Source of the DNA: Chiloscyllium plagiosum
Taxonomy: Eukaryota
Reading direction: 5' to 3'
Length of the DNA stretch: 64,000 nucleotides
Assembly (NCBI RefSeq): GCF_004010195.1
Contig: NC_057752.1
Coordinates: 603,908 to 667,907 of the forward strand
The notes under the pieces were generated by a model. The model ran no database searches and was not told the origin of the DNA. It was given only the letters and a program-made list of their open reading frames with translations. Shown here piece after piece: positions 7,268-64,000 of this stretch; position 1 is the first letter of the stretch; every line of letters begins with the position of its first letter. The translations under genes were made by a program, and so were the position numbers.

Positions 7268-8698
7268 CCAGGTTTGGAGTTACTAGCGACATACCGCAAG
7301 GGTCGGTGTTGGGTCCACTGCTGTTCGTCATTTTTATAAATGACCTGGATGAGGGCTTAGGGTGGGTTAGTAAATTTGCGGACGACACTAAGGTCAGAGG
7401 AGTTGTGAATAGTGATGATGTATGTAGTAGGTTGCAGAGAGACATCGATAGGATGCAGAGCTGGGCTGAGAGGTGGCAAATGGAGTTTAATGTAGACAAG
7501 TGTGAGGTGATACACTTTGGCCGGAGTAATCGGAATGCAAATTACTGGGCTAATGGTAGGATTCTTGGGAATGCAGATGAGCAGAGAGATCTCTGTGTCC
7601 ATGTACACAGATCCCTGAAAGTTGCCACCCAGGTGGAAGGGTTGTTAAGAAGGCATACAGTGTTTTGGCCTTTATTAATAGAGGGATTGAGTTCCGGAAC
7701 CAGGAGGTTATGCTGCAGCTGTACAAAGCTCTAGTACGGCCACACTTGGAGTATTGTGCACTGCATTATAAGAAGGATGTGGAAGCTTTGGAAGGGTGCA
7801 CAGGAGATTTGCTAGGATGTTGCCTGGTATGGAAGGAATGTTTTACGAGGAAAGGCTTGAGGGCCTTGAGGCTGTTCTCGTTAGAGAGAAGAAGGTTGAG
7901 AGGTGAGTTAATAGAGACATACAAGATAATCAGAGGGTTAGATAGGGTGGACAGGGAGAGCCTTTTTCCAAGTATGAGGACGGCAAACACTAGGGCACAC
8001 CACTTTTAAAGTGAGGGGGGATAGGTATAAGACAGATGTCAGAGGTAGTTTCTTTACTCCGAGTAGTAAGGGTATGGAATGCTTTGCCTGCAATGGTAGT
8101 AGATTCGCCAAGTTTCAGTGCATTTAAATCGTCATTGGACAGGCAAATGGACGTACATGGAATAGTGTAGGTGGGATGGGCTTCAGATTAGTATGAGAGG
8201 GCGGCGCATCATCGAGGGCCGAACATTACTGTGCTGTAATGTTCTATGTTCTATGATCTGAGCTACAGGGAGAGCCTGAACAGGCTGGGGCTGTTTTCCC
8301 TGGAGCGTTGGAGGCTGAGGGGTGACCTTATAGAGGTTTACAAAATTGAGGGGCATGGATAGGATAAATAGACAAAGTCTTTTCCTTGGGGTCGGGGAGT
8401 CCAGAACTAGAGGGCATAGGTTTAGGGTGAGAGAGGAAAGATATAAAAGAGACCTAAGGGGCAACATTTTCACGCAGAGGGTGGTGCGTGTATGGAATGA
8501 GCTGCCAGAGGATGTGGTGGAGGCTGGTACAATTGCAACATTTAAAAGGCATTTGGATGGGTATATGAATAGGAAGGGTTTGGAGGGATATGGGCCGGGT
8601 GCTGGCAGGTGGGACTAGATTGGGTTGGGATATCTGGTCGGCATGGACAGGTTGGACCGAAGGGTCTGTTTCCATGCTGTACATCTCTCTGACTCTGA
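7268..8698 (+). mobile_element. Two abutting 5'-truncated CR1 (HER1-like) LINEs
   Basis: RT motifs PQGSVLGPLLF and KFADDTK; distinct 3' tails (tgttcta)n near 8240 and catctctctgactctga near 8690. Confidence 0.92.
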
Positions 8699-9304
8699 GT
8701 GCTCTTAATCTCTAATGAGCAGTAAGTGGTAGCAGCAGTAGAATATTGCCGTGAGTTAGGGCTTCCCTACTCAATTTTATAATGGTATGTTCATTGGACT
8801 GATTGCTTACTTGAAGTCTGTCTGTACCCCTCTCCTGTTCCCCTAGCCTTTCCCTGGGCTAAATCCCAGTTACAAGGACAGAAGGTGGTAGCCTACTTTT
8901 GAATACCACCTTTCAATTCAGGGTGTGGGTAATTATGATTGATTTTAAGCCTGCTATTAAATGAAAATACAAGTTGGCCTCCATCTTAAGTATGGTCTAC
9001 TTACGTGGTAATGTGCTCCCTTATTATTAGGAAGTGATTTGATTGGTGAATGGCTTCTTTAAGTGATTAATGAGACTCTTATTGGCTTCTTGAGCCTGAG
9101 TAAATTTAGTGTGATAAAATGGAATTTGTTCTTGTATATGAAACTGTCAAGAAATAACATGAAGCATGATATAAACGGGATTTATGCTGTCAATATTACA
9201 GTTGATTTAAGCATATTTATTTGAAAATTGCCTTTGTACAACTCAAAGTTGAATGGACCCCTTAAAGGCTTTGATATATTGAGGAAACCATGCCCCTCTC
9301 TTGA

Positions 9305-9770
9305 ATAGAATCACACCTATACAACATGGAAACAGACCCTTTGGTCCAATGTGTCCACGCTGACCAGATATCCTTCCTATTTATATGCCTATCCAGATGC
9401 CTTTTAAATGCTGTAATTGTACCAACTGCCACCACTTCCTCTGGCAGCTTGTTCTATGCCTACATCACTCTCTACATCCTTCCTATAGCAGGGAGACCAG
9501 AACTGAACTGGTATTCCAAAAGTGGCCTAACCAATGTCCTATACAGCTGCAACATGACCACCTAAGTCCTATATTCAATGCATTGACCAATAAAGGCAAC
9601 TGTTCCTAACACCACCTTCTCTACCTTGTATACCTGTGCCTCTATTGTCAAGGAACTATGATCCTGCACTCCAAGGTTTCTTTGTTGAGCAATACTCCTC
9701 AGGACCTTGCCATTACATGTACATGATGTGCCCTGATTTGTCTTCCCAAAATGCAGCACCTCTTAATCTG
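9305..9770 (-). mobile_element. CR1 LINE 3' fragment with internal deletions
   Basis: Same 3' tail as 8257-8698 in reverse; LHFGKTNQG peptide. Confidence 0.88.
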
Positions 9771-13735: not shown

Positions 13736-15190
13736 TCATAGAATCATAGAGACGTGCAGCATAGAAACAGACTCTTCGGTCCAACCCATCCACACCAACC
13801 AGATATCCCAACCCAATCAAGTTCCACCTGCCAGCACCCAGCCCATATCCCTCCAAACTCTTCCTATTCATATACACATCCAAATGACTCTTAAATGTTG
13901 CAATTGTACCAGCCTCTACCATTCCCTCTGGCTGCTCATTCCAGACATGTACCACCCTCTATGTGGAAAAAGTTGCCCTGTAGGTCTCTTTTATATCTTT
14001 CCCCTCACCCTAAACCTATGCCCTCTAGTTATGGACACCCCTACTCCAGGGAAAAGACTTTGCTTATTTACCCTATCCGTGCCCCTCATAATTTTGTAAA
14101 CCTCTATAAGGTCACCCCTCAGCCTCCGACACTCCATGGAAAACATCCCCAGCCTTTTCAGCCTCTCTCTATAGCTCAAATCCTCTAACCCTGGCAACAT
14201 CCTTGTAAATCTTTTCTGAACCCTTTCAAGTTTCACAACATCTTTCCAATAGGAAGGAGACCAGAATTGCACGCAGTATTCCAATAGTGGCCTAACCAAT
14301 NNNNNNNNNNNNNNNNNNNNNNNNNNNNNNNNNNNNNNNNNNNNNNNNNNNNNNNNNNNNNNNNNNNNNNNNNNNNNNNNNNNNNNNNNNNNNNNNNNNN
14401 NNNNNNNNNNNNNNNNNNNNNNNNNNNNNNNNNNNNNNNNGTAATCTGAGGTAACCCTCTTCGCTGTCCACTACACCTCCAATTTTGGTGTCACCTGCAA
14501 ACTTACTAACTGTACCTCTTATGCTCGCATCCAAATCATTTATATAAATGACATAAAGTAGAGGGCCCAGCACCAACACTTGAGGCACTCCATTGGTCAC
14601 AGGCCTCCAGTCTGAAAAACAACCCTCCACCACCACTCTGTCTTCTACCTTTGAGCCAGTTCTGTACCCAAATGGCTAGTTCTCCCTGTATTCCATGAGA
14701 TCTAACCTTGCTAACCAGTCTCCCATGGGGAACCTTGTTGAACGCCTTACTGAGTCCATATAGATCACATCTACCACTCTGCCCTCATCAATCTTCTTTG
14801 TTACTTCTTTAAAAAACTCAAATCAAGTTTGTGAGACATGATTTCCCACGCACAAAGCTATGTTGACTATCCCTAATCAGTCCTTGCCTTTCCAAATACA
14901 TGTGTCCCTCAGGAATCCCTCCAACAACTTGCCCACCACAGACATCAGGCTCACTGGTCTATAGTTCCCTGACTTGTCCTTACAACCCTTCTTAAACAGT
15001 GGTACCACGTTAGCCAACCTCCAGGATTCCAGCACCTCACTTGTATCGATGAAAGAAAATGTCGGCAAGAGGCCCAGCAATCACTTCTCTAGCTTCCCAC
15101 AGATTCTCTGGTACACCTGATCAGGTCCTGGGGATTTATCCACCTTTACGCATTCAAGACATCCTGCACTTCCTCCTCTGTGATCTGGAC
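13736..15190 (-). mobile_element. CR1 LINE (younger subfamily) spanning the gap
   Basis: ANVVPLFKKG..NYRPVSL, GVPQ..LGPLL and RPLLEYCVQFWSP peptides; 3' tail. Confidence 0.92.
14301..14440. other. Assembly gap (140 N) inside a CR1 LINE
   Basis: Run of N flanked on both sides by CR1 RT sequence. Confidence 0.99.
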
Positions 15191-18681: not shown

Positions 18682-19070
18682 AAAAACAAGGACTGCAGAT
18701 GCTGGAAACCAGATTCTAGATTAGAGTAGTGCTGGAAAAGCAGCAGTTCAGGCAGCAACTGAGGAGCAGGAAAATTTACGTTTTGGGCAAAAGCCCTTCA
18801 TCAGGAATACAGGCAGAGTGCCTGCAGGGTGGAGAGATAAATGAGGAGGGTGGGGGTGAAGGTGATAGGTCAGAGAGGAGGGTGGAGTGGATAGGTGGAA
18901 AGGAAGGTTCTTCCTCCAGGCGTCTGGTGGTGAGGGAGCGGCGGTGAAGAAGGCCCAGGACCTCCGTGTCCTCGGCAGAGTGGGAGGGGGAGTTGAAATG
19001 TTGGGCCACAGGGCAGTGTTGTTGATTGGTGCGGGTGTCCTAGAGATGTTCCCTAAAGCGCTCTGCTAGA
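18682..19070 (-). mobile_element. Penelope-like element 3' end (GIY-YIG C-terminus and pLTR with decayed hammerhead)
   Basis: Peptide AQHFNSPSHSAEDTEVLGL..RRLEEE; ttcCTGATGAAGGGCTTTTGCCCaAAACGT on -. Confidence 0.8.
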
Positions 19071-23308: not shown

Positions 23309-23435
23309 AAAATCACAACACCAGGTTATAGTCCAACAGGTTTATTTGGAAGCACTAGCTTTTGGAGCTGCTTCTTCATCAGATGGTCACCACAACCACC
23401 AGATGAAGGAACAGCGCTCAAAGCTAGTGCTCACA
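23309..23435. mobile_element. Short inverted Penelope pLTR fragment with decayed hammerheads
   Basis: Same family as 48690-48783, in a fold-back arrangement. Confidence 0.75.
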
Positions 23436-25879: not shown

Positions 25880-26065
25880 AGAAAGTGAGGACCGCAGATG
25901 TTGGAGATCAGAGTCGAGACAGTGTGGTGCTAGAAAAGCACAGCAGGTCAGACAGCATTCGAGGAGCAGGAGAATCGACGTTTTGGGCACAAGCCCTTCA
26001 TCAGGATTTCTGCATCCAGCAGGATGCTGCCAGACCTGCTGTGCTTTTCCAGCACCACACTCGTG
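25880..26065. mobile_element. Short fold-back Penelope pLTR insertion with a hammerhead motif
   Basis: Inverted arms (gtggtgctagaaaagcacagcaggtc / gacctgctgtgcttttccagcaccac); hammerhead at 25973-26008 on -. Confidence 0.8.
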
Positions 26066-31000: not shown

Positions 31001-31634
31001 GTCTCGCTGAGATGACAAAAAAGTTATTTCTTAACGGGAAGGTTAAAGGGTTTAATTAAGTGAAACGACTCTTTTATAATAATAGAGTTGATATCAAACA
31101 TTAAGTTTTCTTTACAACTATTGCCTGACCAGTTGTATGCATTTCATCATAGAGTAAACGCTACGCTTTCTTAACCTCACGCAAACATCTCAACGAGCGC
31201 GAGTTTACCAGGAAAAGAGCTTAAGTTAACATTTGTACTTTTTTTCTCTCAGCGAAGGAGACCGAATGAAAACTGAAGCGTGACTAAATGGAGCTCTTTT
31301 AAGGTTATGGAAGTTTTTGATAAGATACGTTTTGAGAAGATGTTTCTACTTACTGAGGAAGATCAGAGCTGGGAAGATAAATATAAGATTGTTACCAATA
31401 AATCCAATAGCAGCTTCTTTACCCAGAGAACGATGAGAATATAGGACTCGATGTTAAGGTAAATATGATGTGGAGGAGCCGCTGTTGGACTGGGGTAGAC
31501 GAAGTTAAGAATCACACAACACCAAGTTATAGTCCCAACAGGTTTATTCGGAAGCACTCATAAAACACAGAATTTATACCAAAAGATTACAGTGTCATGC
31601 AACTAAAATTATATATTAAACAAACCTAGATTGT

Positions 31635-31805
31635 GGATGTAAATTTGCTCACTGAGCTGGAAGGTTCATTTTCAGATGTTTCGTCACCATACTAGGTAAC
31701 ATCATCAGTAAGCCTCACTGGAAGCTCATGATGTTACCAAGTATGGTGACAAAATGTCTGAAAACTAACCTCAACCTGAGCTACAAATCTTCTCAAAACT
31801 CGCTA
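31635..31805. mobile_element. Nested fold-back hammerhead-bearing insertion
   Basis: TSD aaacctagattgt (31622-31634 and 31806-31818); CTGATGA-T-GTTACC tagtat GGTGAC-GAAAC on -. Confidence 0.8.
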
Positions 31806-32210
31806 AAACCTAGATTGTTGTTAAGTCTTTCATCTTTTAGAATAGGTTGCAGGTTTTGGATCATTAGTATGAAAATCCCAGAACTTCTTTTAAGTCACAT
31901 TCTCCTGGATGTATGTTTGCTCACTGAGTTGGAAGGTTCATTTTCAGATGTTTCATCCAGGTACTAGGTAACATTTTTAGTGAGCCTCTGGATGAAGCCT
32001 TACATTCTTCAGATAACTTAAGGTTTTATAAAAAAAGTGACATCTCAGCTCAGACAATGCATTAAAGGTGTGAGGTTAGAGTCTGTCTGTATCCCAATCT
32101 TGAGTCAGACTGATTCTATTTCTAAAGTGGAATTTACAAAATATTACATAGATTGACTGCCTGCAGATTTTGAACTTTTTGAGCAAAATGAAATGTATCT
32201 GCAAATATAT

Positions 32211-32525
32211 GGGGTGGCACAGTGGCTCAGTGGTTAGCACTGCTGCCTCACAGCACCAGGGTCCCAGGTTTGATTCTAGCCTTGGGTGACTGTCTGTGTG
32301 GAGTTTGCACATTGTCCCTGGGTCTGCGTGGGTTTCCTCTGGGTGCTGCGGTTTCCTCCCACAGTCCAAAGGTGCGCAGGTCAGGTGAATCGGCCATTCT
32401 GAATTGCCCATAATGTGTGCATTAGTCAGAGGGAAATGGGTCTGGGTGGGTTCCTCTTCGGAGGGTTGGTGTGGACTTGTTGGGCCAAAGGGCCTGTTTC
32501 CACACTGTAGGGAATCTAATCTAAA
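32211..32525 (+). mobile_element. HE1-type V-SINE inserted in the Penelope element
   Basis: Full head, V-domain and tail; flanking aaatata duplication. Confidence 0.9.
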
Positions 32526-35402
32526 TATAATCTTGCAAATACACATTCACCCTCTGGACTTGTATGTGTGTGCGCGTGAGTGCACATGAGAGATTGTGTG
32601 TTTGTGTGTGTGTGTATATGAGAGAGAGAGAGAGCACGTCTGTGTGTAAGTATGAGAGAGTGTATAGTGTAGTGGGGTCACCTGTAGTGTGACATGAACC
32701 CAAGGTACCAGTTGCGGCCATCCTCATGGGTACCGAACATGGCTATCAGCCTTTGCTTGGCCACTTTGCGTTGTTGCCTATCCCGAAGTCTGCCTTGGAG
32801 ATTGGTCACCCGAAGATCTGAGGCCAAAATAGAACCAATCTGACTCGAGATTGGGATACAGACAGACTCTAACCTCACACATTTAATATATCGTCTGAGC
32901 TGAGATGTCACCTTTTTGTTAAACTTTGTTTATCTCGAGAATGTGAGTTAAAAGAAGTTCTGGGATTTACATATTAATGAACTAAAACCTGCAACCCAAT
33001 CTTAAAAATGAAAGACTTAATAGCGATCTAGGTTTTTTCATAATATCATTTCAGTTGCATGACACTGTAATCTTTTGCTATAAATTCTGTCTTACGGACC
33101 TGCTCCACAACTACCTGATGAAGGAGCAGCGCACTGAGAGCTAGTGCTTCCAAATAAACCTGTTGGACTATAGCCTGGTGTTGTGTGATTTTTAACAAGA
33201 TAAATATTGTTGATGCAGTGAAAACAGGGAGGGAAAGTTGGATAAACACATGGAGAAAGAAAAAGATGTTGACAGGATGAGGGTCAGGTAGGATTGGGAG
33301 GTGGCTGATGTGGGACATAAACCAATTTGGCAGAACAGCCTATTTCTTTGCTATTAATTTTCTGTAACTTTAAAGCTTCCCAGATATAGAATTAGCTTTA
33401 TTGTCAAACATACTCATGAGTACAGTGTTAAGTTGACATGTCGCCACTTGTGGCACTATCTTAGGTACATATTCTAAAGTACAATTTCTTAGGGGAAGAA
33501 AAATAATAAAGAAATAAAATGCCCAGCAATAAATTAGAAAAATAGAGAAATAACAGTAATTCCAACCCATAACCCACGGGGCTTCACCTTGTGGCCGGGA
33601 GTCAGGGTTCACGCTGAGGCTGGGAGTCGGTACTGGCTTCCGCCCCAGACAATGCTGCCCAAGGATGGGAGGTAAAAAATAATTCAAAAAGAGAGAGGAA
33701 AAAAAGAAAAGAAACAGACACACTCTGGCTCTGAAGTCCTACTCTGCTGCCATTCTTGTAGAAGAATCATCTGAATTACTGTACATCAAACAGAGTTAAA
33801 ACTGTGTCCTGCACATGTGAATTGGGAGCAAGAATAAATTATTTTGTTCCTCAAGCCTGTACCACCATTCAATAGGATCATTGTTGATCTGATTTATGGC
33901 CATAGCTTCACATTCCCAGCTACCTAAATAACCTTTGACTTCCTTGTTAATCAATAACCTACAGTATATACTTATATTATGTGCTGTTTCAGAAATAGTT
34001 TACGCCTGAGGCACATTCCTAGAAAAGGATTGCTTGTAAATGAGCAAATCCTGGGCCTAATAGCTCTCAACTATTGAATTGCTCTCCTAATAGTTGATAA
34101 TTCCAGCAAAAATATTAAGCAATATTAATGAAAAACCGAATTAGCTATTTTCCATTTCTACACCTGTAAAGAACATGCAAATAAACAGTTTTGAATGTTT
34201 CATATGTTATGCAAAAAGGCCTGGTTCATTGTGGCTTAAAATGGCATTTGTTTTTTTTTTAATGCTTTGCATTATGGGATTTTTAAAGCTCTGTATTTCG
34301 GAAAGCATTTCCTGTAATTCCATTTATTGGATATTTTCTATTTTAACTATTTTCTGGTAATCTTGATCCTAATTTGATCTTTAATTAAAGATCCATAGAA
34401 TACTTACTTTCACAAATGCTAACTGGCCTGATTGTAAAGTACCTGCAGTACTTGACAGTGCAATAGGTGATGATGTGCAAGTATTTGTCACTTTATATGA
34501 CACATATTTTACAGTCTGTTGCCCTAAGGGTACATGGAGTTCCCACAGCTGACGCCAAAGTCCTTCTGATTCTTTTTCAGCTTTTTAAAATTGTTACAAG
34601 ATATTTCTAGTGTCCAAAATCATAAAATTAAACCAAAACATACAGGCTTCTCAAAAACCTGTTTAAATTTACCCAGTCCTTTTGGTATTTTTATGCCTTC
34701 CTTAAAGATTTTACTTGAAGGTCTCAGCTTCTCCCAAAGACCTGTGCTTGGATTTGATAATTTGAACTTAAACTGTGATACTAATCTGAACTTGGATTGT
34801 GCGTTCTGAGCATCTTTTAAATGATTCGTTATTTGTGTTCTTTATTCTTCTTCAGCTTCTTACACTTTCTGCATAGTTTTCATGATGGTGAATGATAAGA
34901 GGAAACATATTACCAACCTTACTGAACACACTGAGGTAAAATTTGAGATTTCTTTGCTGTGAGATAAAGAAAGAGCCAACTGTGTTTTAATTATACTTTT
35001 TTTATAAACCATTTTACAAACTTATGAACCATATTTAACTGAGGGTGTTACAGAGGGAGACTGGATTGAAAGAAAGCGAGTAAGAGGCTTAGGTCAGAGC
35101 ATGGGAGAGTTTAATTCCTCCAAATTGATTTTTTTAAAAGAAAAAGACCAGTTCAATATGGAAAACATGTGAAAGCAAAAGGAAACAGCAAGAGATTGGA
35201 AGGGAGATGTGATAATAGTTGAATGTGAGGAGGCTATCAGCAAACCACCTCGAAGGAAATGTGTGAGAGTGGATGGAGACTTGAGAGAAAACCAGCTGCA
35301 ATAGCTTAAAGGAGAGTGGCAGATACAGGGGTTGTGTGTAGTTCAAAGGGAAAGAGGTACATGTTGAGGGAACAGGTGGTAGCAAGAGTCTTAAGTAATG
35401 GG

Positions 35403-50863: not shown

Positions 50864-52917
50864 GTGAGCAGATGCATCTGCCTGGAATTTTAGCTGAGAA
50901 CGCACACACCACCAGCTTTTTAAAACAAAATACCTCTTACTTTTGACGCGATCTGTTTAACGGAATCTCTCACCGTTTTTGAAACGGTTCGAATTGTGTC
51001 GTAAATGCGCAGTTTAATGGCAAAGTTTTATTTTAAAATTTCCCCCAATTACCCTCGCTGCCTTGTTTCCACAGCTGCTGCAGTATCCCTCAGTGATCTA
51101 ATACAATCCTTGAAGCTGTGATGTAAACTTCATCGTGGGAACATTTTTAATTGTATCCCAGGCAGTGGGTTGTGACGCGATGTGTTTTTGTCTCGAGGTA
51201 GCGCACGGGAAATTCGAGCAGTTCTTCCATATGGTTCAATGGGATGTCGGACAGGTGTAATTTCGCACTTTAAGGGCGTCTTGCCATTGAACATCAGTAA
51301 AGCGAAGCAACTGTTCAGTTTCCCAACACTAGGATCTGTTTTCTTTTCAACCTAGAAGCTGATTATGGATGCCTGTGTGTAGTAAATAGTTTTTGCTTAT
51401 TTGTGTGATGTTTTATTTGCTTACATCTGAGTGTCTCCAGGAGTGTTTTGTTTCTTGATATAAATCCCCCCTCCCTCACACTTACAGCTACACGATTAAA
51501 ACTCCATTGACTAAGGCTTTAAAATAGTTTTATATTTGAATATGTTTTTATAAAATTCTCTGTTCATTGAATGCTGTCTGCATTTGCTGAAGTAGGAGGA
51601 ACATGGGCCTCCCTTGTTTGTCTGTGTAATTATCCAGGAGGTTTGCTGGACTTGTGCCAAATCTCCAGAGCAGATTTACCTGAAGTTCTGAACCAAATAT
51701 TGCTTGTTAACGTTTGAGGGGAGGAAATCATCACAAGCAAAATAATTTCCCAAAGAGCAATGGATAGAGAAAACTAAGTAATGAAGAATGGAATTTAGTT
51801 GAAGCCAATCCTGTTGTCATTTCTTATTTGGAAGAAAAATATGGTGTGAAGATAGGATTCAGATGGAATGCAGCAAGTACCTCTTACTCTGACACCAGAA
51901 TGTCAACAAAAATCCCATCAGATTTCAAAAATTGTTGCTGGATACATAATAAATTAGTTCTGAGGAATAGTCACTGTTTTGTATCCAACAATGACATCCA
52001 TTTTGCCTACAGTAAAGCAATAAATTACAACGACAGTGTTTTTGACGGTATTGGTTGAGGAGGTGAGGAATGTTGCTCAGAACATTGGGAGAACAACCAA
52101 CTTTTTTTTGTTAAACATACCGCAACACAAAGAAAAGGATAACATCTGTTCCCAAATGGTTTACTTTTAAAAATTCATTGGTTTAATTCCTGCAATGAGG
52201 ACACCAGATCAGGCAAATATCTTGACTGGAAACATAACTGTTTCTATTTTCTGCAGTGTGGAAGATCCAAGCTGTTAAATGCCCAATCTTATCTGTTGCA
52301 AGCATCAGTTATATATTGGTAAATGATATAATTTGTTGATCTGCATTTTTCAGTTTGGCATTTAGAACTGTATGTAAAATAACTGAGGAAGGAAGTGGTC
52401 TCGCACAGATTCAGCCCACAGCAAGGGCCTACTTGCTTTAGGGGAGTGTAGAACAAGAATGAGATTATAACTTGGTACAACCTACTTATACTGCTGTAAA
52501 AAGAAATCTGTATCAAAAAGCATGATTTTACAATTCCAAAATTATCAACAAAACACCAATGGGGAAATGGGTTATCTATCTGGTTCCTATTAAATCACCA
52601 AGTTAAACACTTGTCATCAAACAAATTGATAATGCCTAACATTTGTTGTACTGTCAGCAAATATCAGTGCTGACTACTATTGTTGTGTACAAGTGACAGC
52701 AATTTCAGTGTTCACACATACACAGACAAACTCAGAAATCAGCAAGTTGCTATCTGTACAGCGTACTATCCCACAGGGTGTACTTTTTCAGTCTTCACAC
52801 ATACAATTAATGCAGAATCAATGACTTGACATGAATTTAACCTTTTTGTTTATTGTTCTTACTGTAAAAAAATTGAAAATATTAAGACTTGACAAATGGA
52901 ATGCAACTAATTTTTAA

Positions 52918-58782: not shown

Positions 58783-59979
58783 CCAGGTTGCAGCTGGGCT
58801 TACTGGGATTTCCCACTGGAATGCTCCCCAGTGCTGAATCGTGGCTGGTGAGGAACTGCAACAGAACTGCTGGGTTTTGCTTGGTCTGTGGTGGTGGTGG
58901 TGGAAGAGAGACAGGGAGGGGGTTTGTGGAGAGAAGAGAGAAGGAAGTAGAGAGGAATAAAGGTTGAGAAGAAGATAAGGGAGGAGGGTTGGCAAGGATC
59001 CCACAGAAGTGAATGGAGACGGCTTCTCAGGGAATAGTGGCAGAAACATGTAACCGAGTCCAGGGTTTACCCGGCCATTCTCACAAATGTGGGGGCAGCT
59101 GCTGGTAGTAATTCTTGTCCTTGTTGGCACTCAGGGCACTGCCCCACCAATACGGCCATGTCTGCATCCAATCCTGGTCACCAGACATAACTTCTCACCA
59201 GCACCTACATTTTGGAAACCCCCAGATGATCCTGGTGGAATTCGGCTGGTATCAAGTGGCAACCTTTGCTCAAGACAATCACTCTTGCTCCCCATAATAA
59301 TATGCCAGCCTCTATGGTGATAGATCTCGCTGGGTCCAGAAAGGTTTGAATTCTGGTGTTGTGATGGCCTTTCTGTTTTCCCAGACAGGATCTTTTTGTG
59401 TCCACAGTCTGATATTGTCAGTGGTGACCGGAAGAGTGTCCAGAAAGTTTAAAACCAGAATGGACTCTTCCAGTGGCGGCACCACTGGTGGTGTATTCGC
59501 AGTGAGAGGTGGCTCAGGTTTTCCACACTTGCTACTTGGCCTCCCAGATGGTGTTCCAACTTGCTGTCTCGAGTCTGCGTACTGGCACCAACTTCAATGG
59601 CCTGCTGGCCCGACCTCGAGAAAATTTGACCGTTTAGCTGAGGCTTGTCTTTGTTTTGGAGCTTTGATGTGGGCTGACATCGGGTCCCTCTGTTCACGAT
59701 ATGTCCTGAGTGAGGCTATGCAATTGCTTTCACTCAGGTGGCGTCCCTCAAGCTCATTTGGCCTGGCGAGGGTATCCATTTCCATGAGCATACCCTATAA
59801 CTCATATGCTCAACTTGCCATATTTTCTAATGTCAAAGCCAGTTGCAATACCTGTTTGAAGTCCAGTTGGGCTTCAGCTAGTAGGCGTTTTTGCATGGTT
59901 ACATCCTTAATCCCACTTTCGTTGTGACTGAAACAACTCCACAAAAGCTGGTATCCCATCAAGTCATCCTGTTTATGCA

Positions 59980-60188
59980 GAGTTAAAAATCACACAACAC
60001 CGGGTTATAGTCCAACAAGTTTATTTTGAAGTACAAGCTTCGGGAGTGCTGCTCCTTCATCACTATCTATTTGACAAAGGAACAGCACTCCCAAAGCTTG
60101 TACTTCGAAATAAATCTGAACTATAACCTGGTGTTGTGTGTTTTTTAACTTTGTCCACCCCAGTCCAACACTGGCACCTCCACATTTT
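59980..60188. mobile_element. Fold-back Penelope pLTR insertion
   Basis: Inverted arms; 10-bp TSD tgtttatgca (59970-59979 and 60189-60198). Confidence 0.82.
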
Positions 60189-61719: not shown

Positions 61720-61942
61720 TAATAGAATCTCCACAGTGTGGAAACAGGCCATTTGGCCCAATAAGTCAACACCAACCCTCCACAGAGCATCCCACCCGGA
61801 CCCATCCCCGTCCCCATCCCCCTACTCTATCCCTGTAACCCTACATTTCCCATGGCTAATGCACCTAACCTACGCATCCCTAAACACTATGGATAATTTA
61901 GCATGGCCAATCCACTGAACTTGCACATCTTTGGACTGTAGG
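61720..61942 (-). mobile_element. HE1-type SINE 3' part
   Basis: Reverse of the HE1 body and tail. Confidence 0.8.
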
Positions 61943-62349
61943 GAATGTTCAATTCTTCAGTATACTCAGGAATGAAATCAGTCAATTTTAGAAGATACTA
62001 GGGAATCACTAAGGTTATTAGGATAGGGCAAGAATGTCAAGTCAATAATGAGCCATAATCTTCTGGAATGACAGTGTAGGTTTGATGGATTGTATGACCT
62101 CGTATTGCTCCTATTTCTTAGGTTTCTATGTGTTAATTGACTGACTGGATCTAATTGGCAAAATGACACAGTGAACAGTTAAAATGGCGTCCCATCTGTT
62201 GACTTATTATAGATAATTGTTTTGGAAGACTATGCAATTTTCTAAGCTCTCTTTGGTAAACTGGTTAGCAAGGTTAGATCTCATGGAACACAGGGAGAAC
62301 TAGCCATTTTGATACAGAACTGGCTCCAAGGTAAAAGACAGAGGATGGT

Positions 62350-62647
62350 CAAAGTTTGTGCGAAGATTTGTAGCTCAGGTGCTCGTTGTTGTGGTTCTGT
62401 TCGCCGAGCTGGGAAATTGTGTTGCAGACGTTTCGTCCCCTGTCTAGGTGGCATCCTCAGTGCTTGGAAGCCTCCTGTGAAGTGCTTCTGTGATCTTTTC
62501 TCTGGCATTTATAACCACTATAAATGCCGGAGAAAAGATCACAGAAGCGCTTCACAGGAGGCTCCCAAGCACTGAGGATGCCACCTAGACAGGGGACGAA
62601 ACGTCTGCAACACAATTTCCCAGCTCGGCGAACAGAACCACAACAAC
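62350..62647. mobile_element. Palindromic Penelope-derived insertion with two mirrored hammerheads
   Basis: 129-bp arms (62385-62513 and 62519-62647) with about 3 mismatches and a 5-nt loop; imperfect TSD acagaggatggt / acagagggtgat. Confidence 0.85.
62569..62608 (+). ncRNA. Minimal type-I hammerhead ribozyme (mirror copy at 62424-62463 on -)
   Basis: GCA-CUGAGGA-U-[imperfect stem II]-GAAAC-GUC/UGC, with ACGU palindrome. Confidence 0.7.
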
Positions 62648-64000
62648 AGAGGGTGATGGCGGAAGGTTGCTTTTCAGACTGGAGGCCTGTGACTGGTGGT
62701 GTGCCACAAGGATCAGTGCTGCATCTACTGCTTTTCGGCATTTTTGTAAATGATTTGGATGTGAACATAGAAGGTATAGTTAGTAAGTTTGCAGATGACA
62801 CCAAAAGAGGAATAGCAGATGGAGTTTAATTCAGATAAATATGAGGTGCTGCATTTTGGAAAGACTTATACACTTAATGGTAAGGTCCTGGGAGTGTTGC
62901 TTGCAAATTCATAGTTCTTTGAAAGTGGAGTCGCAGGTAGATAGGATAGTGAAGAAGGCTTTTGGTATGCTTTCCTTTATTGGTCAGAATATTGAGTATA
63001 GGAGTTGGGAGGTCATGTTGGGGCTGTACAGGACATTGGTTAGGACACTTTTGGAATATTGTGTGCAATTCTGGTCTCCGTCCTACTGGGAGGATGTTGT
63101 GAAACTTGAAAGGGTTCAGAAAAGATTTACAAGGATGTTGCCAAGGTTAGACGGTTTGAGCTATAGGGAGAGATTGAAAAGGCTGGGGCTGTTTTCCCTG
63201 GAGCGTCGGAGGCTGAGGGGTGACCTTATAGAGGTTTATAAAATCATGAGGGATATGGATTGGATAAATAGACAAAGTCTTTTCCCTGGGTTCGGGGAGT
63301 CCAGAACTAGAGCGCATAAAGGTTTAGGGTTAGAGGGGAAAAATTTAAAAGGGACCCGAAGGGCAACTTTTTCACGCAGAGGGTGGTGCGTGTATGGAAT
63401 GAGCTGCCAGAGGACGTGGTGGAGACTAGTACAATGACGACATTTAAAAGGCATCTGGATGGGTATATGAATAGGAAGGGTTTGGAGGGATATGGGCCAA
63501 GTGCTAGCAAATGAGACTAGATTAGATTAGGATATCTGGTTGGCATAGACAAGTTGGACCGAAGAGTCTGTTTCCATGCTGTACATTTCTATGACTCTTT
63601 AGAGTGGATTTGTATTTTTGTTGTATTATGTCACATAATTCTCTAATATTTATTAAAGTATTTAAAATCTGACTATGTGTGGAATCATGTTCTGCACCCA
63701 TTGCCCAAGCTCTGTCACTACTGAACCTCTTGTAAACCTCCTCTTGTCACCACTGCGGTGAGTAGATGAGTGTTCCTGGAAAGTGAGTCCACAATAATGA
63801 AATATGTCTAGTCTTATAATTTTTTTAACAATTGATGAACATCATTATGTAGGCAATAGACCTATCATTCTCAGTCAGAAGATGCAATATCAGAAAGGCC
63901 ATTCAGCCTAATTGATCTATGTTGGTGCTAATGCTCCACACAAACCTCCTTCCACCCTATTTCTTTGAATTCCATCGTCTTATATTTATATTCCTCTTTC

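Follow-up and report, generated by a model that had tools for sequence, protein, structure and literature searches.

Near the right end of the window, which is the whole 64,000-nucleotide stretch of Chiloscyllium plagiosum DNA that was analysed, a short palindrome lies within a LINE in an intron of an AGAP-family gene. The features at the locus are given here in order along the window, with strands relative to the window as presented.

50701-50863, + strand: initial coding exon of an AGAP-family gene in its short isoform, with the donor GT at 50864
62246-62348, + strand: part of the host LINE left of the insertion, whose frame runs on into the right part across the site
62338-62348, + strand: left-hand copy of the duplicated target site, 11 bp, or 12 with T62349
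62349-62384, - strand: Penelope "tail" of 36 nt, present on the left arm only; the tailed 3′ end of the element is 62349
62385-62513, - strand: left arm, a 5′-truncated pLTR with its sense on the - strand, holding all three arm differences in the derived state
62424-62463, - strand: left-arm copy of the predicted minimal type-I hammerhead
62513-62518, + strand: centre, family sense sequence belonging to the right (tail-less) arm; at 62513 it overlaps the left arm by 1 nt
62517-62588, + strand: last 23 codons and stop of the putative RT-endonuclease ORF, 18/23 identical to the C-terminus of P0042
62519-62647, + strand: right arm, a tail-less pLTR in the sense of the host gene, of which 62646-62647 (2 nt) overlap with the target
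62524-62646, + strand: start of the element ORF in another frame, with an ATG at 62524 and a second ATG at 62578 where stem II starts, 35/41 identical to residues 1-41 of P0028
62569-62608, + strand (host sense): predicted minimal type-I hammerhead with a 3-bp stem I, the core CUGAGGA, a bulged U, a C-A in stem II at 62581/62596, a palindromic ACGU replacing stem III, and a predicted cut after 62605
62646-62656, + strand: right copy of the target-site duplication, with 2 differences from the left copy
62657-63600, + strand: remaining RT frame and 3′ end of the host LINE, right limit approximate

The first-pass annotation had described 129-bp arms with about three mismatches, and this was borne out: the arms are 129 nt each and 98% complementary, are separated by a 5-nt spacer, and differ at exactly three positions (62468, 62483 and 62503). 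The differences are ordinary transitions, two of the three at CpG, and by ancestral states taken from the protein frames of related records all three are derived on the left arm. When folded, the palindrome reaches -263 kcal/mol (z -38), which none of 200 shuffles equalled, and the + strand fold forms 128 of the 129 arm pairs. The 36 nt flanking the left arm (62349-62384) have no mirror counterpart. The start of the insertion, previously placed at 62350, is corrected to 62349 from the family ends seen in read contigs.

A target-site duplication of about 12 bp within a CR1 had also been proposed. The duplication stands at 11 bp (12 counting the shared T), with 2 of 11 positions different between its copies, and the insertion does split the middle of the LINE RT frame. 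An uninterrupted copy of the LINE at 14483-14725 is 84% alike to the 62246-62348 part and matches across the insertion site. The LINE flank gave a weak RVT_1 match (E 0.00075, below cut-off) in one of three flank pieces, and we take the host LINE to be CR1-type.

The insertion lies ~11.5 kb into the intron that follows exon 50701-50863. The translation of this exon is identical over 54/54 aa to the Chiloscyllium proteins P0001 and P0006, and since no other AGAP exon was found in the 64-kb window (tblastn, five isoforms), we place the insertion in intron 1 of the short isoform. The earlier placement in intron 1 of AGAP2 thus holds for the intron, as numbered in the short isoform of this bamboo-shark AGAP gene, while the evidence on the name AGAP2 is divided. 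The matching Chiloscyllium proteins are called "AGAP1-like" by NCBI, and raw scores likewise favour the AGAP1 and CENTG3 chains (278 and 274 bits) over centaurin gamma 1 (227 bits), which we take to be AGAP2. Site patterns favour AGAP2: among the GTPase-domain sites that group the shark protein, counted by eye, 11 place it with centaurin gamma 1, one with AGAP1 and none with CENTG3. On these sites the host gene is probably AGAP2, which falls short of proof. P0001 begins the AGAP protein 68 codons upstream (50497-50700), where its ATG is ATA in the window; this upstream start is probably a prediction artefact in the 5′ UTR. Long AGAP isoforms with a different first exon (P0013 and P0025) had no match in the window.

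The arms belong to a coding element. Read on the - strand from 62508, the left arm gives 53 residues, 44 of which are identical to residues 1-53 of P0028, a 656-aa Chiloscyllium RT protein with RVT_1 above cut-off and a DKG motif; P0028 was the one match among two candidates in a protein search with the left-arm peptide. In P0042, one of the relatives of P0028, the RT is followed by a VYKIPC..C...YIGQTGR segment, presumably a GIY-YIG motif, and then by the C-terminus that matches the arm frame. Pfam GIY-YIG was sub-threshold in two of six relatives, with no match for P0042, and the top Atlas match of residues 620-832 of P0032, a 48%-identical relative, was a GIY-YIG cluster at 0.96 in which the family is on 20% of members. 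The family ORF is therefore likely, by sequence similarity, to carry a C-terminal GIY-YIG endonuclease. Because each arm holds an ORF end, an ORF start and a hammerhead, we read it as a Penelope pLTR, and likeness to RT proteins suggests the Penelope/Poseidon clade. The P0028 and P0042 matches, the one-sided tail and the target duplication together uphold the original reading of a Penelope-like pLTR in an inverted 5′-truncated insertion. A phmmer search with a 35-aa peptide returned two matches, both tandem-repeat translations, and was set aside; a PDB search with P0028 returned two chance matches only.

Across the hammerhead region (62517-62646), the end of the ORF and its start share sequence in two frames, and since the stop codon falls in stem II, 62 nt past the upstream ATG, the stretch would be constrained three ways. 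Among the best 120 of 580 relatives of P0028, the best non-shark relatives of the element ORF are parasitic flatworms (Dicrocoelium at 50% over 94% of the query, and many tapeworm records); this likeness could come from database bias or an old transfer. The N-terminus of P0031 resembles that of the element ORF.

The hammerhead core reads GCA-CUGAGGA-stem II-GAAACGUC-UGC on the + strand at 62569-62608 and on the - strand at 62463-62424, with CUGANGA...GAAA...UH kept and with an ACGU palindrome between GAA and the cleavage C as the stem III remnant. A hammerhead descriptor matched four times in the window, compared with a mean of 0.13 in 30 Markov simulations, and once on the + strand of the whole 64 kb. 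The first-pass annotation had assigned each arm a hammerhead core closed by GCA:UGC; the core was indeed found on both strands, with the correction that each strand carries one ribozyme and its antisense, not two ribozymes. The check by covariance-model search went against it, with no Rfam hammerhead among 20 matches at E<=5, nor among three at E<=10 for a single arm. The Rfam matches that did appear were miRNA-hairpin and chance ones, all below gathering score, and the miRNA matches arise because the sequence is a near-perfect hairpin. A metagenome scan for the hammerhead core found 0 loci, and an unconstrained cofold of two copies gave no double-hammerhead fold.

Stem II is, in the folding model, damaged in both arms. 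Pair 10.2-11.2 is C-A and unpaired in both, and is U-A in 3/3 copies of a second family described below. A U at this site is implied by P0028 (Ser for Pro), by P0042 (Val for Ala), these proteins coming from related but non-identical subfamilies, and by three contigs among those listed. The contig substitution table does not contain the stem II site; this table is non-exhaustive, as obvious LINE differences are also absent from it. The closing G10.1-C11.1 pair of stem II has a probability of 0.16 in the isolated motif compared with 0.9985 in the second-family copy. Covariation is only suggestive: the stems could be compared in five sequences only, with one compensatory stem I change between two families, and in the same five, paired cells were 76.6% compared with 32-47% when slid, with shuffle counts of 30/500 and 104/500.

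Head-to-head structure is routine in this window. Three further head-to-head pairs with hammerhead-like cores are present, with spacers of 7-16 nt, and the related pieces are as follows.

31623-31818: older head-to-head pair of the second family at 31646-31812, with a tail-less arm at 31646-31714 (- strand), a tailed arm at ~31720-31805 (+ strand) and a 13-bp duplication
31918-31986, - strand: third copy of the second family, decayed
59978-60153: head-to-head pair of a third family, in the same AGAP intron, 2.2 kb upstream
~23309-23431: another head-to-head pair of the third family
48685-48790, 33107-33196 and 31502-31557: single pieces of the third family

The tail of the element is identical to the second-family tail at 31774-31800 in 26/28 columns; the two families' pLTRs are only 72% alike, yet the tail is shared. 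The third repeat family, with its hammerhead-like core, occurs seven times as two pairs and three singles. Another repeat, at 25915-26065 and 18723-18806, has 38-nt inverted ends around a CTGATGA...AAAC core-like centre and was missed by the strict descriptor. There are also longer inverted pairs at 45793-46919, 32025-32923 and 8476-9473, in which segments of 91-121 nt, 81-92% alike, stand 0.4-0.9 kb apart.

Sequencing reads from four runs of 24 were placed on 61900-62545, and the contig figures come from three DNA runs. The fourth, the RNA run X22, gave 0 reads from the ~6% of it that was covered, too little to bear on transcription, editing or cleavage. In the DNA runs, contig depths added up to 0.8-3.4 million across most of the arm, a depth that is no copy number, compared with 13-25 in the unique flank, so that the family is plainly very abundant. 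Among the best 18 of 420 loose contig ends, at least 44 contigs (X1) and at least 27 (X5) leave before 62349 into unrelated AT-rich flanks, and at least 13 + 10 (X6) leave before 62386/62387. From these pile-ups at 62349 and 62386/62387, we infer that the family has a tailed and a tail-less end. Contigs that match the + strand from 62513 continue upstream in common family sequence (5 in X1 and 14 in X5, with agreement of 0.94 and 0.97), which indicates that the spacer is family sense DNA of the tail-less arm. Two contigs have other centres, where an antisense arm ends at 62408 or 62450 and a sense piece follows after 4 or 19 extra letters. Two substitutions are common to both arms and absent from most family copies, one of them at 62416 (mirror 62616), where the arm base is absent from 98-99.6% of the family read depth, and this shows a common origin of both arms.

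Palindromes can arise as fold-back chimeras, and none of the 24 contig pieces listed, out of a set with 40,838 more, spans a junction of this locus. Against an assembly artefact stand the three differences between the arms, every one of them derived on the left arm, the divergence of the target duplication, and the one-sided tail that ends exactly at the family end, and we give this explanation almost no credence. If the palindrome were a non-autonomous element of MITE-like or retrozyme-like type that moved as one preformed hairpin, its compactness, its target duplication and the very high family depth would be accounted for. This is very improbable here, as the ends are asymmetric with the tail on one side, the arms are pieces of a coding element, the contigs at the centre either carry on in the usual family sequence upstream or have different joints, and there is no tandem copy.

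We conclude, with a probability of about 0.85, that a high-copy Penelope/Poseidon-type retrotransposon left the palindrome as a short head-to-head insertion, which was built at its target site and is now a passive passenger of the intron. Both 3′ ends point outward and sit on the two family end sites, which indicates two priming events, one on each strand of a staggered cut, and the staggered cut accounts for the target duplication. The overlaps with the target (1 nt on the left and 2 nt on the right) are consistent with priming. Two simpler schemes were rejected: with fold-back of the tailed cDNA alone the spacer would read on the other strand, and fold-back of the tail-less cDNA alone leaves no source for the tail.

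Among mechanisms, we give about an even chance to two primings combined with fold-back of the tail-less cDNA. The endonuclease would nick both strands 11-12 nt apart, so that the 3′ end of the top strand could prime a cDNA at the tailed start site and the 3′ end of the bottom strand could prime one at the tail-less site. The tail-less cDNA would stop at ~135 nt, fold back over a 5-nt loop and be copied, and the fold-back product would then pair with the tailed cDNA. Such a course predicts near-equal arm lengths and short spacers, as in all four pairs of the window (5-16 nt). Two observations count against the explanation as a whole: the fold-back would be primed by one base pair only, and the target is not AT-rich, counter to the reported preference of the anole enzyme. 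Two-primer fold-back would be new for Penelope elements.

A serious rival, to which we give a lesser though substantial share of belief, is that two independent cDNAs, one from each nicked strand, were joined end to end through the 1-nt microhomology without any fold-back. The 1-nt overlap at the centre fits such joining, as do the two contigs with other centres and their 4 or 19 extra letters, and both strands are nicked and extended in vitro by an anole Poseidon protein that is predicted to be a dimer (PMC11167929). However, the ends of two independent cDNAs would not have to fall within 6 nt of one another, and yet the spacers are 5-16 nt in 4/4 pairs of the window. Self-priming on an antisense RNA template is improbable. 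It was proposed for palindromic head-to-head junctions of rotifer Penelopes (PMC3846280), but alone it leaves unexplained why the outer ends lie on both family end sites, which are sense-template start sites in vitro (PMC11167929), and no hairpin is available for it in the family sequence upstream of the centre.

The insertion had been called young, which is right relative to the neighbouring repeats, whose arms are 81-92% alike, but it is not recent. Arm divergence is 3/129 or 2.3% (95% CI 0.5-6.7%), and between the window and a flank contig of organism B, 5 letters in ~294 (1.7%) are different and there is one 4-nt insertion, so that the arms differ about as much as the flanks of two species. 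At a mutation rate of 7e-10 per base per generation (PMC10587355), the single non-CpG change alone implies millions of generations.

In a 401-nt context of the + strand, the hammerhead is paired to its mirror with a mean probability of 0.9997. Because of the head-to-head geometry, the antisense arm is transcribed first in either direction, and in the folding model the hammerhead is expected to be masked by this arm. In AGAP pre-mRNA, the antisense arm would come first and zip the hammerhead up as it emerges, leaving a 128-of-129-bp intronic hairpin. The earlier proposal that a transcript in either direction carries a ribozyme plus its antisense in a long hairpin is in keeping with the fold and with pairing at p>0.99. 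Intronic duplexes of this length (129 bp) are typical ADAR substrates, and by analogy editing of this hairpin is plausible; the hairpin would probably be edited by ADAR, with essentially no self-cleavage and no host function. For repeats of this class, more than 40,000 hyper-edited sites are reported in lizard Penelope, together with abundant hyper-editing in elephant shark brain (PMC5625713), and Penelope is among the most edited repeats of X. tropicalis (PMC10636886). Double-stranded RNA and editing of Penelope repeats are thus already known at class level.

The proposal went further, in that the hairpin could mask cleavage of the host pre-mRNA. As a functional switch, the hammerhead would cut AGAP pre-mRNA unless masked by the hairpin, and ADAR unwinding or Dicer processing would tune expression. 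The core residues are intact on the host sense strand, the duplex is near-perfect, editing of Penelope is heavy in both lizard and X. tropicalis, with hyper-editing also in the brain of elephant shark (PMC5625713 and PMC10636886), and tandem retrozymes are depleted from Xenopus introns, although 42-44% of copies overlap introns (10.64898/2026.07.22.740005). Against this, since the single descriptor match on the + strand leaves no second + strand motif in the window, there is no cis dimer partner; stem II is damaged in the model; and the arm differences are ordinary transitions, two of three at CpG. Moreover, metazoan PLE hammerheads cleave poorly, a single minimal motif being uncleaved and dimers little cleaved (PMC4209133), and the anole motif cut only with protein, with no reads ending at the cut site and with cutting dispensable for insertion (PMC11167929). 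Cleavage of host RNA, with or without masking, is unlikely on this modelling, masking of host cleavage is not sustained, and a functional switch is hard to believe.

A broader idea is that head-to-head inversion is a built-in safety catch, where antisense-first transcription would silence the ribozyme both ways. Introns would then keep inverted stubs but lose pLTRs that are sense-oriented or in tandem. In bamboo sharks, nuclear dsRNA and A-to-I editing would come in large part from the very many hairpins of this kind, and two-primer fold-back would be recorded at their centres. We offer this as speculation that is probably wrong. In the titles and abstract openings of the literature, we found nothing on bamboo-shark Penelope hammerheads, two-primer formation of inverted PLE copies or antisense masking. 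As a single locus, the palindrome is of little weight, being one of very many Penelope stubs of a known kind. It is a clean specimen that reveals both outer ends, which arm owns the spacer and which substitutions the arms share, all of them features that separate models of inverted Penelope insertion, a step called undefined in PMC8557442. A census of the family across the genome could discriminate between formation models and test whether inverted pairs escape selection in introns.

The locus may be compared with five known systems. In a typical Penelope insert, the pLTR contains the first codons and has an inverted pLTR beside it, one end bears a 31-bp tail, and the duplication is 8-10 bp (PMC3846280); the same picture, its formation mechanism undefined, is given in PMC8557442, and the inverted-pLTR anatomy is described in Drosophila (PMC2377424). 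With these EN+ PLE inserts, the shark locus has in common a pLTR with ORF start and hammerhead, an adjacent inverted 5′-truncated copy, a 30-40-nt tail at one end, a short target duplication and a head-to-head junction. The shark stub differs in that it is without the element body and measures ~300 bp in all, and its duplication is 11-12 bp compared with 8-10 bp in rotifers.

In anole Poseidon, the stretch from one RT start site to the other makes up the tail, and the ORF begins at stem II, 26 nt before the cut (PMC11167929). The shark element likewise has an ATG at the start of stem II with the predicted cut 28 nt after it (26 in Anolis PAc), two preferred 3′ ends one tail apart and an AC-rich tail-less end. 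In contrast, the shark ends lie 68-70 and 106 nt after the ATG whereas PAc starts mainly at 111-118, the shark target is not AT-rich, and in the shark family another ATG stands in frame 54 nt upstream of the one at stem II.

The minimal motif of metazoan PLE hammerheads was defined in PMC4209133, where opposite-strand pairs stand 100-700 bp apart, and the dimer model is summarised in PMC6765202. The shark motif shares with them the core, the bulged base before G10.1, a long stem II, a short stem I and a palindromic stem III remnant, but it has a C-A beside the closing pair, and its stem I is 3 bp compared with 4-5 in Schistosoma (PMC4209133).

Like the repeats that serve as ADAR substrates (Xenopus Harbinger, and lizard and X. 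tropicalis Penelope; PMC5625713 and PMC10636886), the locus is a single repeat unit that would fold to a tight short-loop hairpin in the transcript; unlike them, the shark palindrome arises at insertion and not as a consensus. With the non-LTR retrozymes (10.64898/2026.07.22.740005), it has in common a PLE-derived type-I hammerhead in a non-coding remnant. Those are head-to-tail tandems with at least two ribozymes on the same strand, whereas the shark arms stand head-to-head, with one ribozyme per strand.
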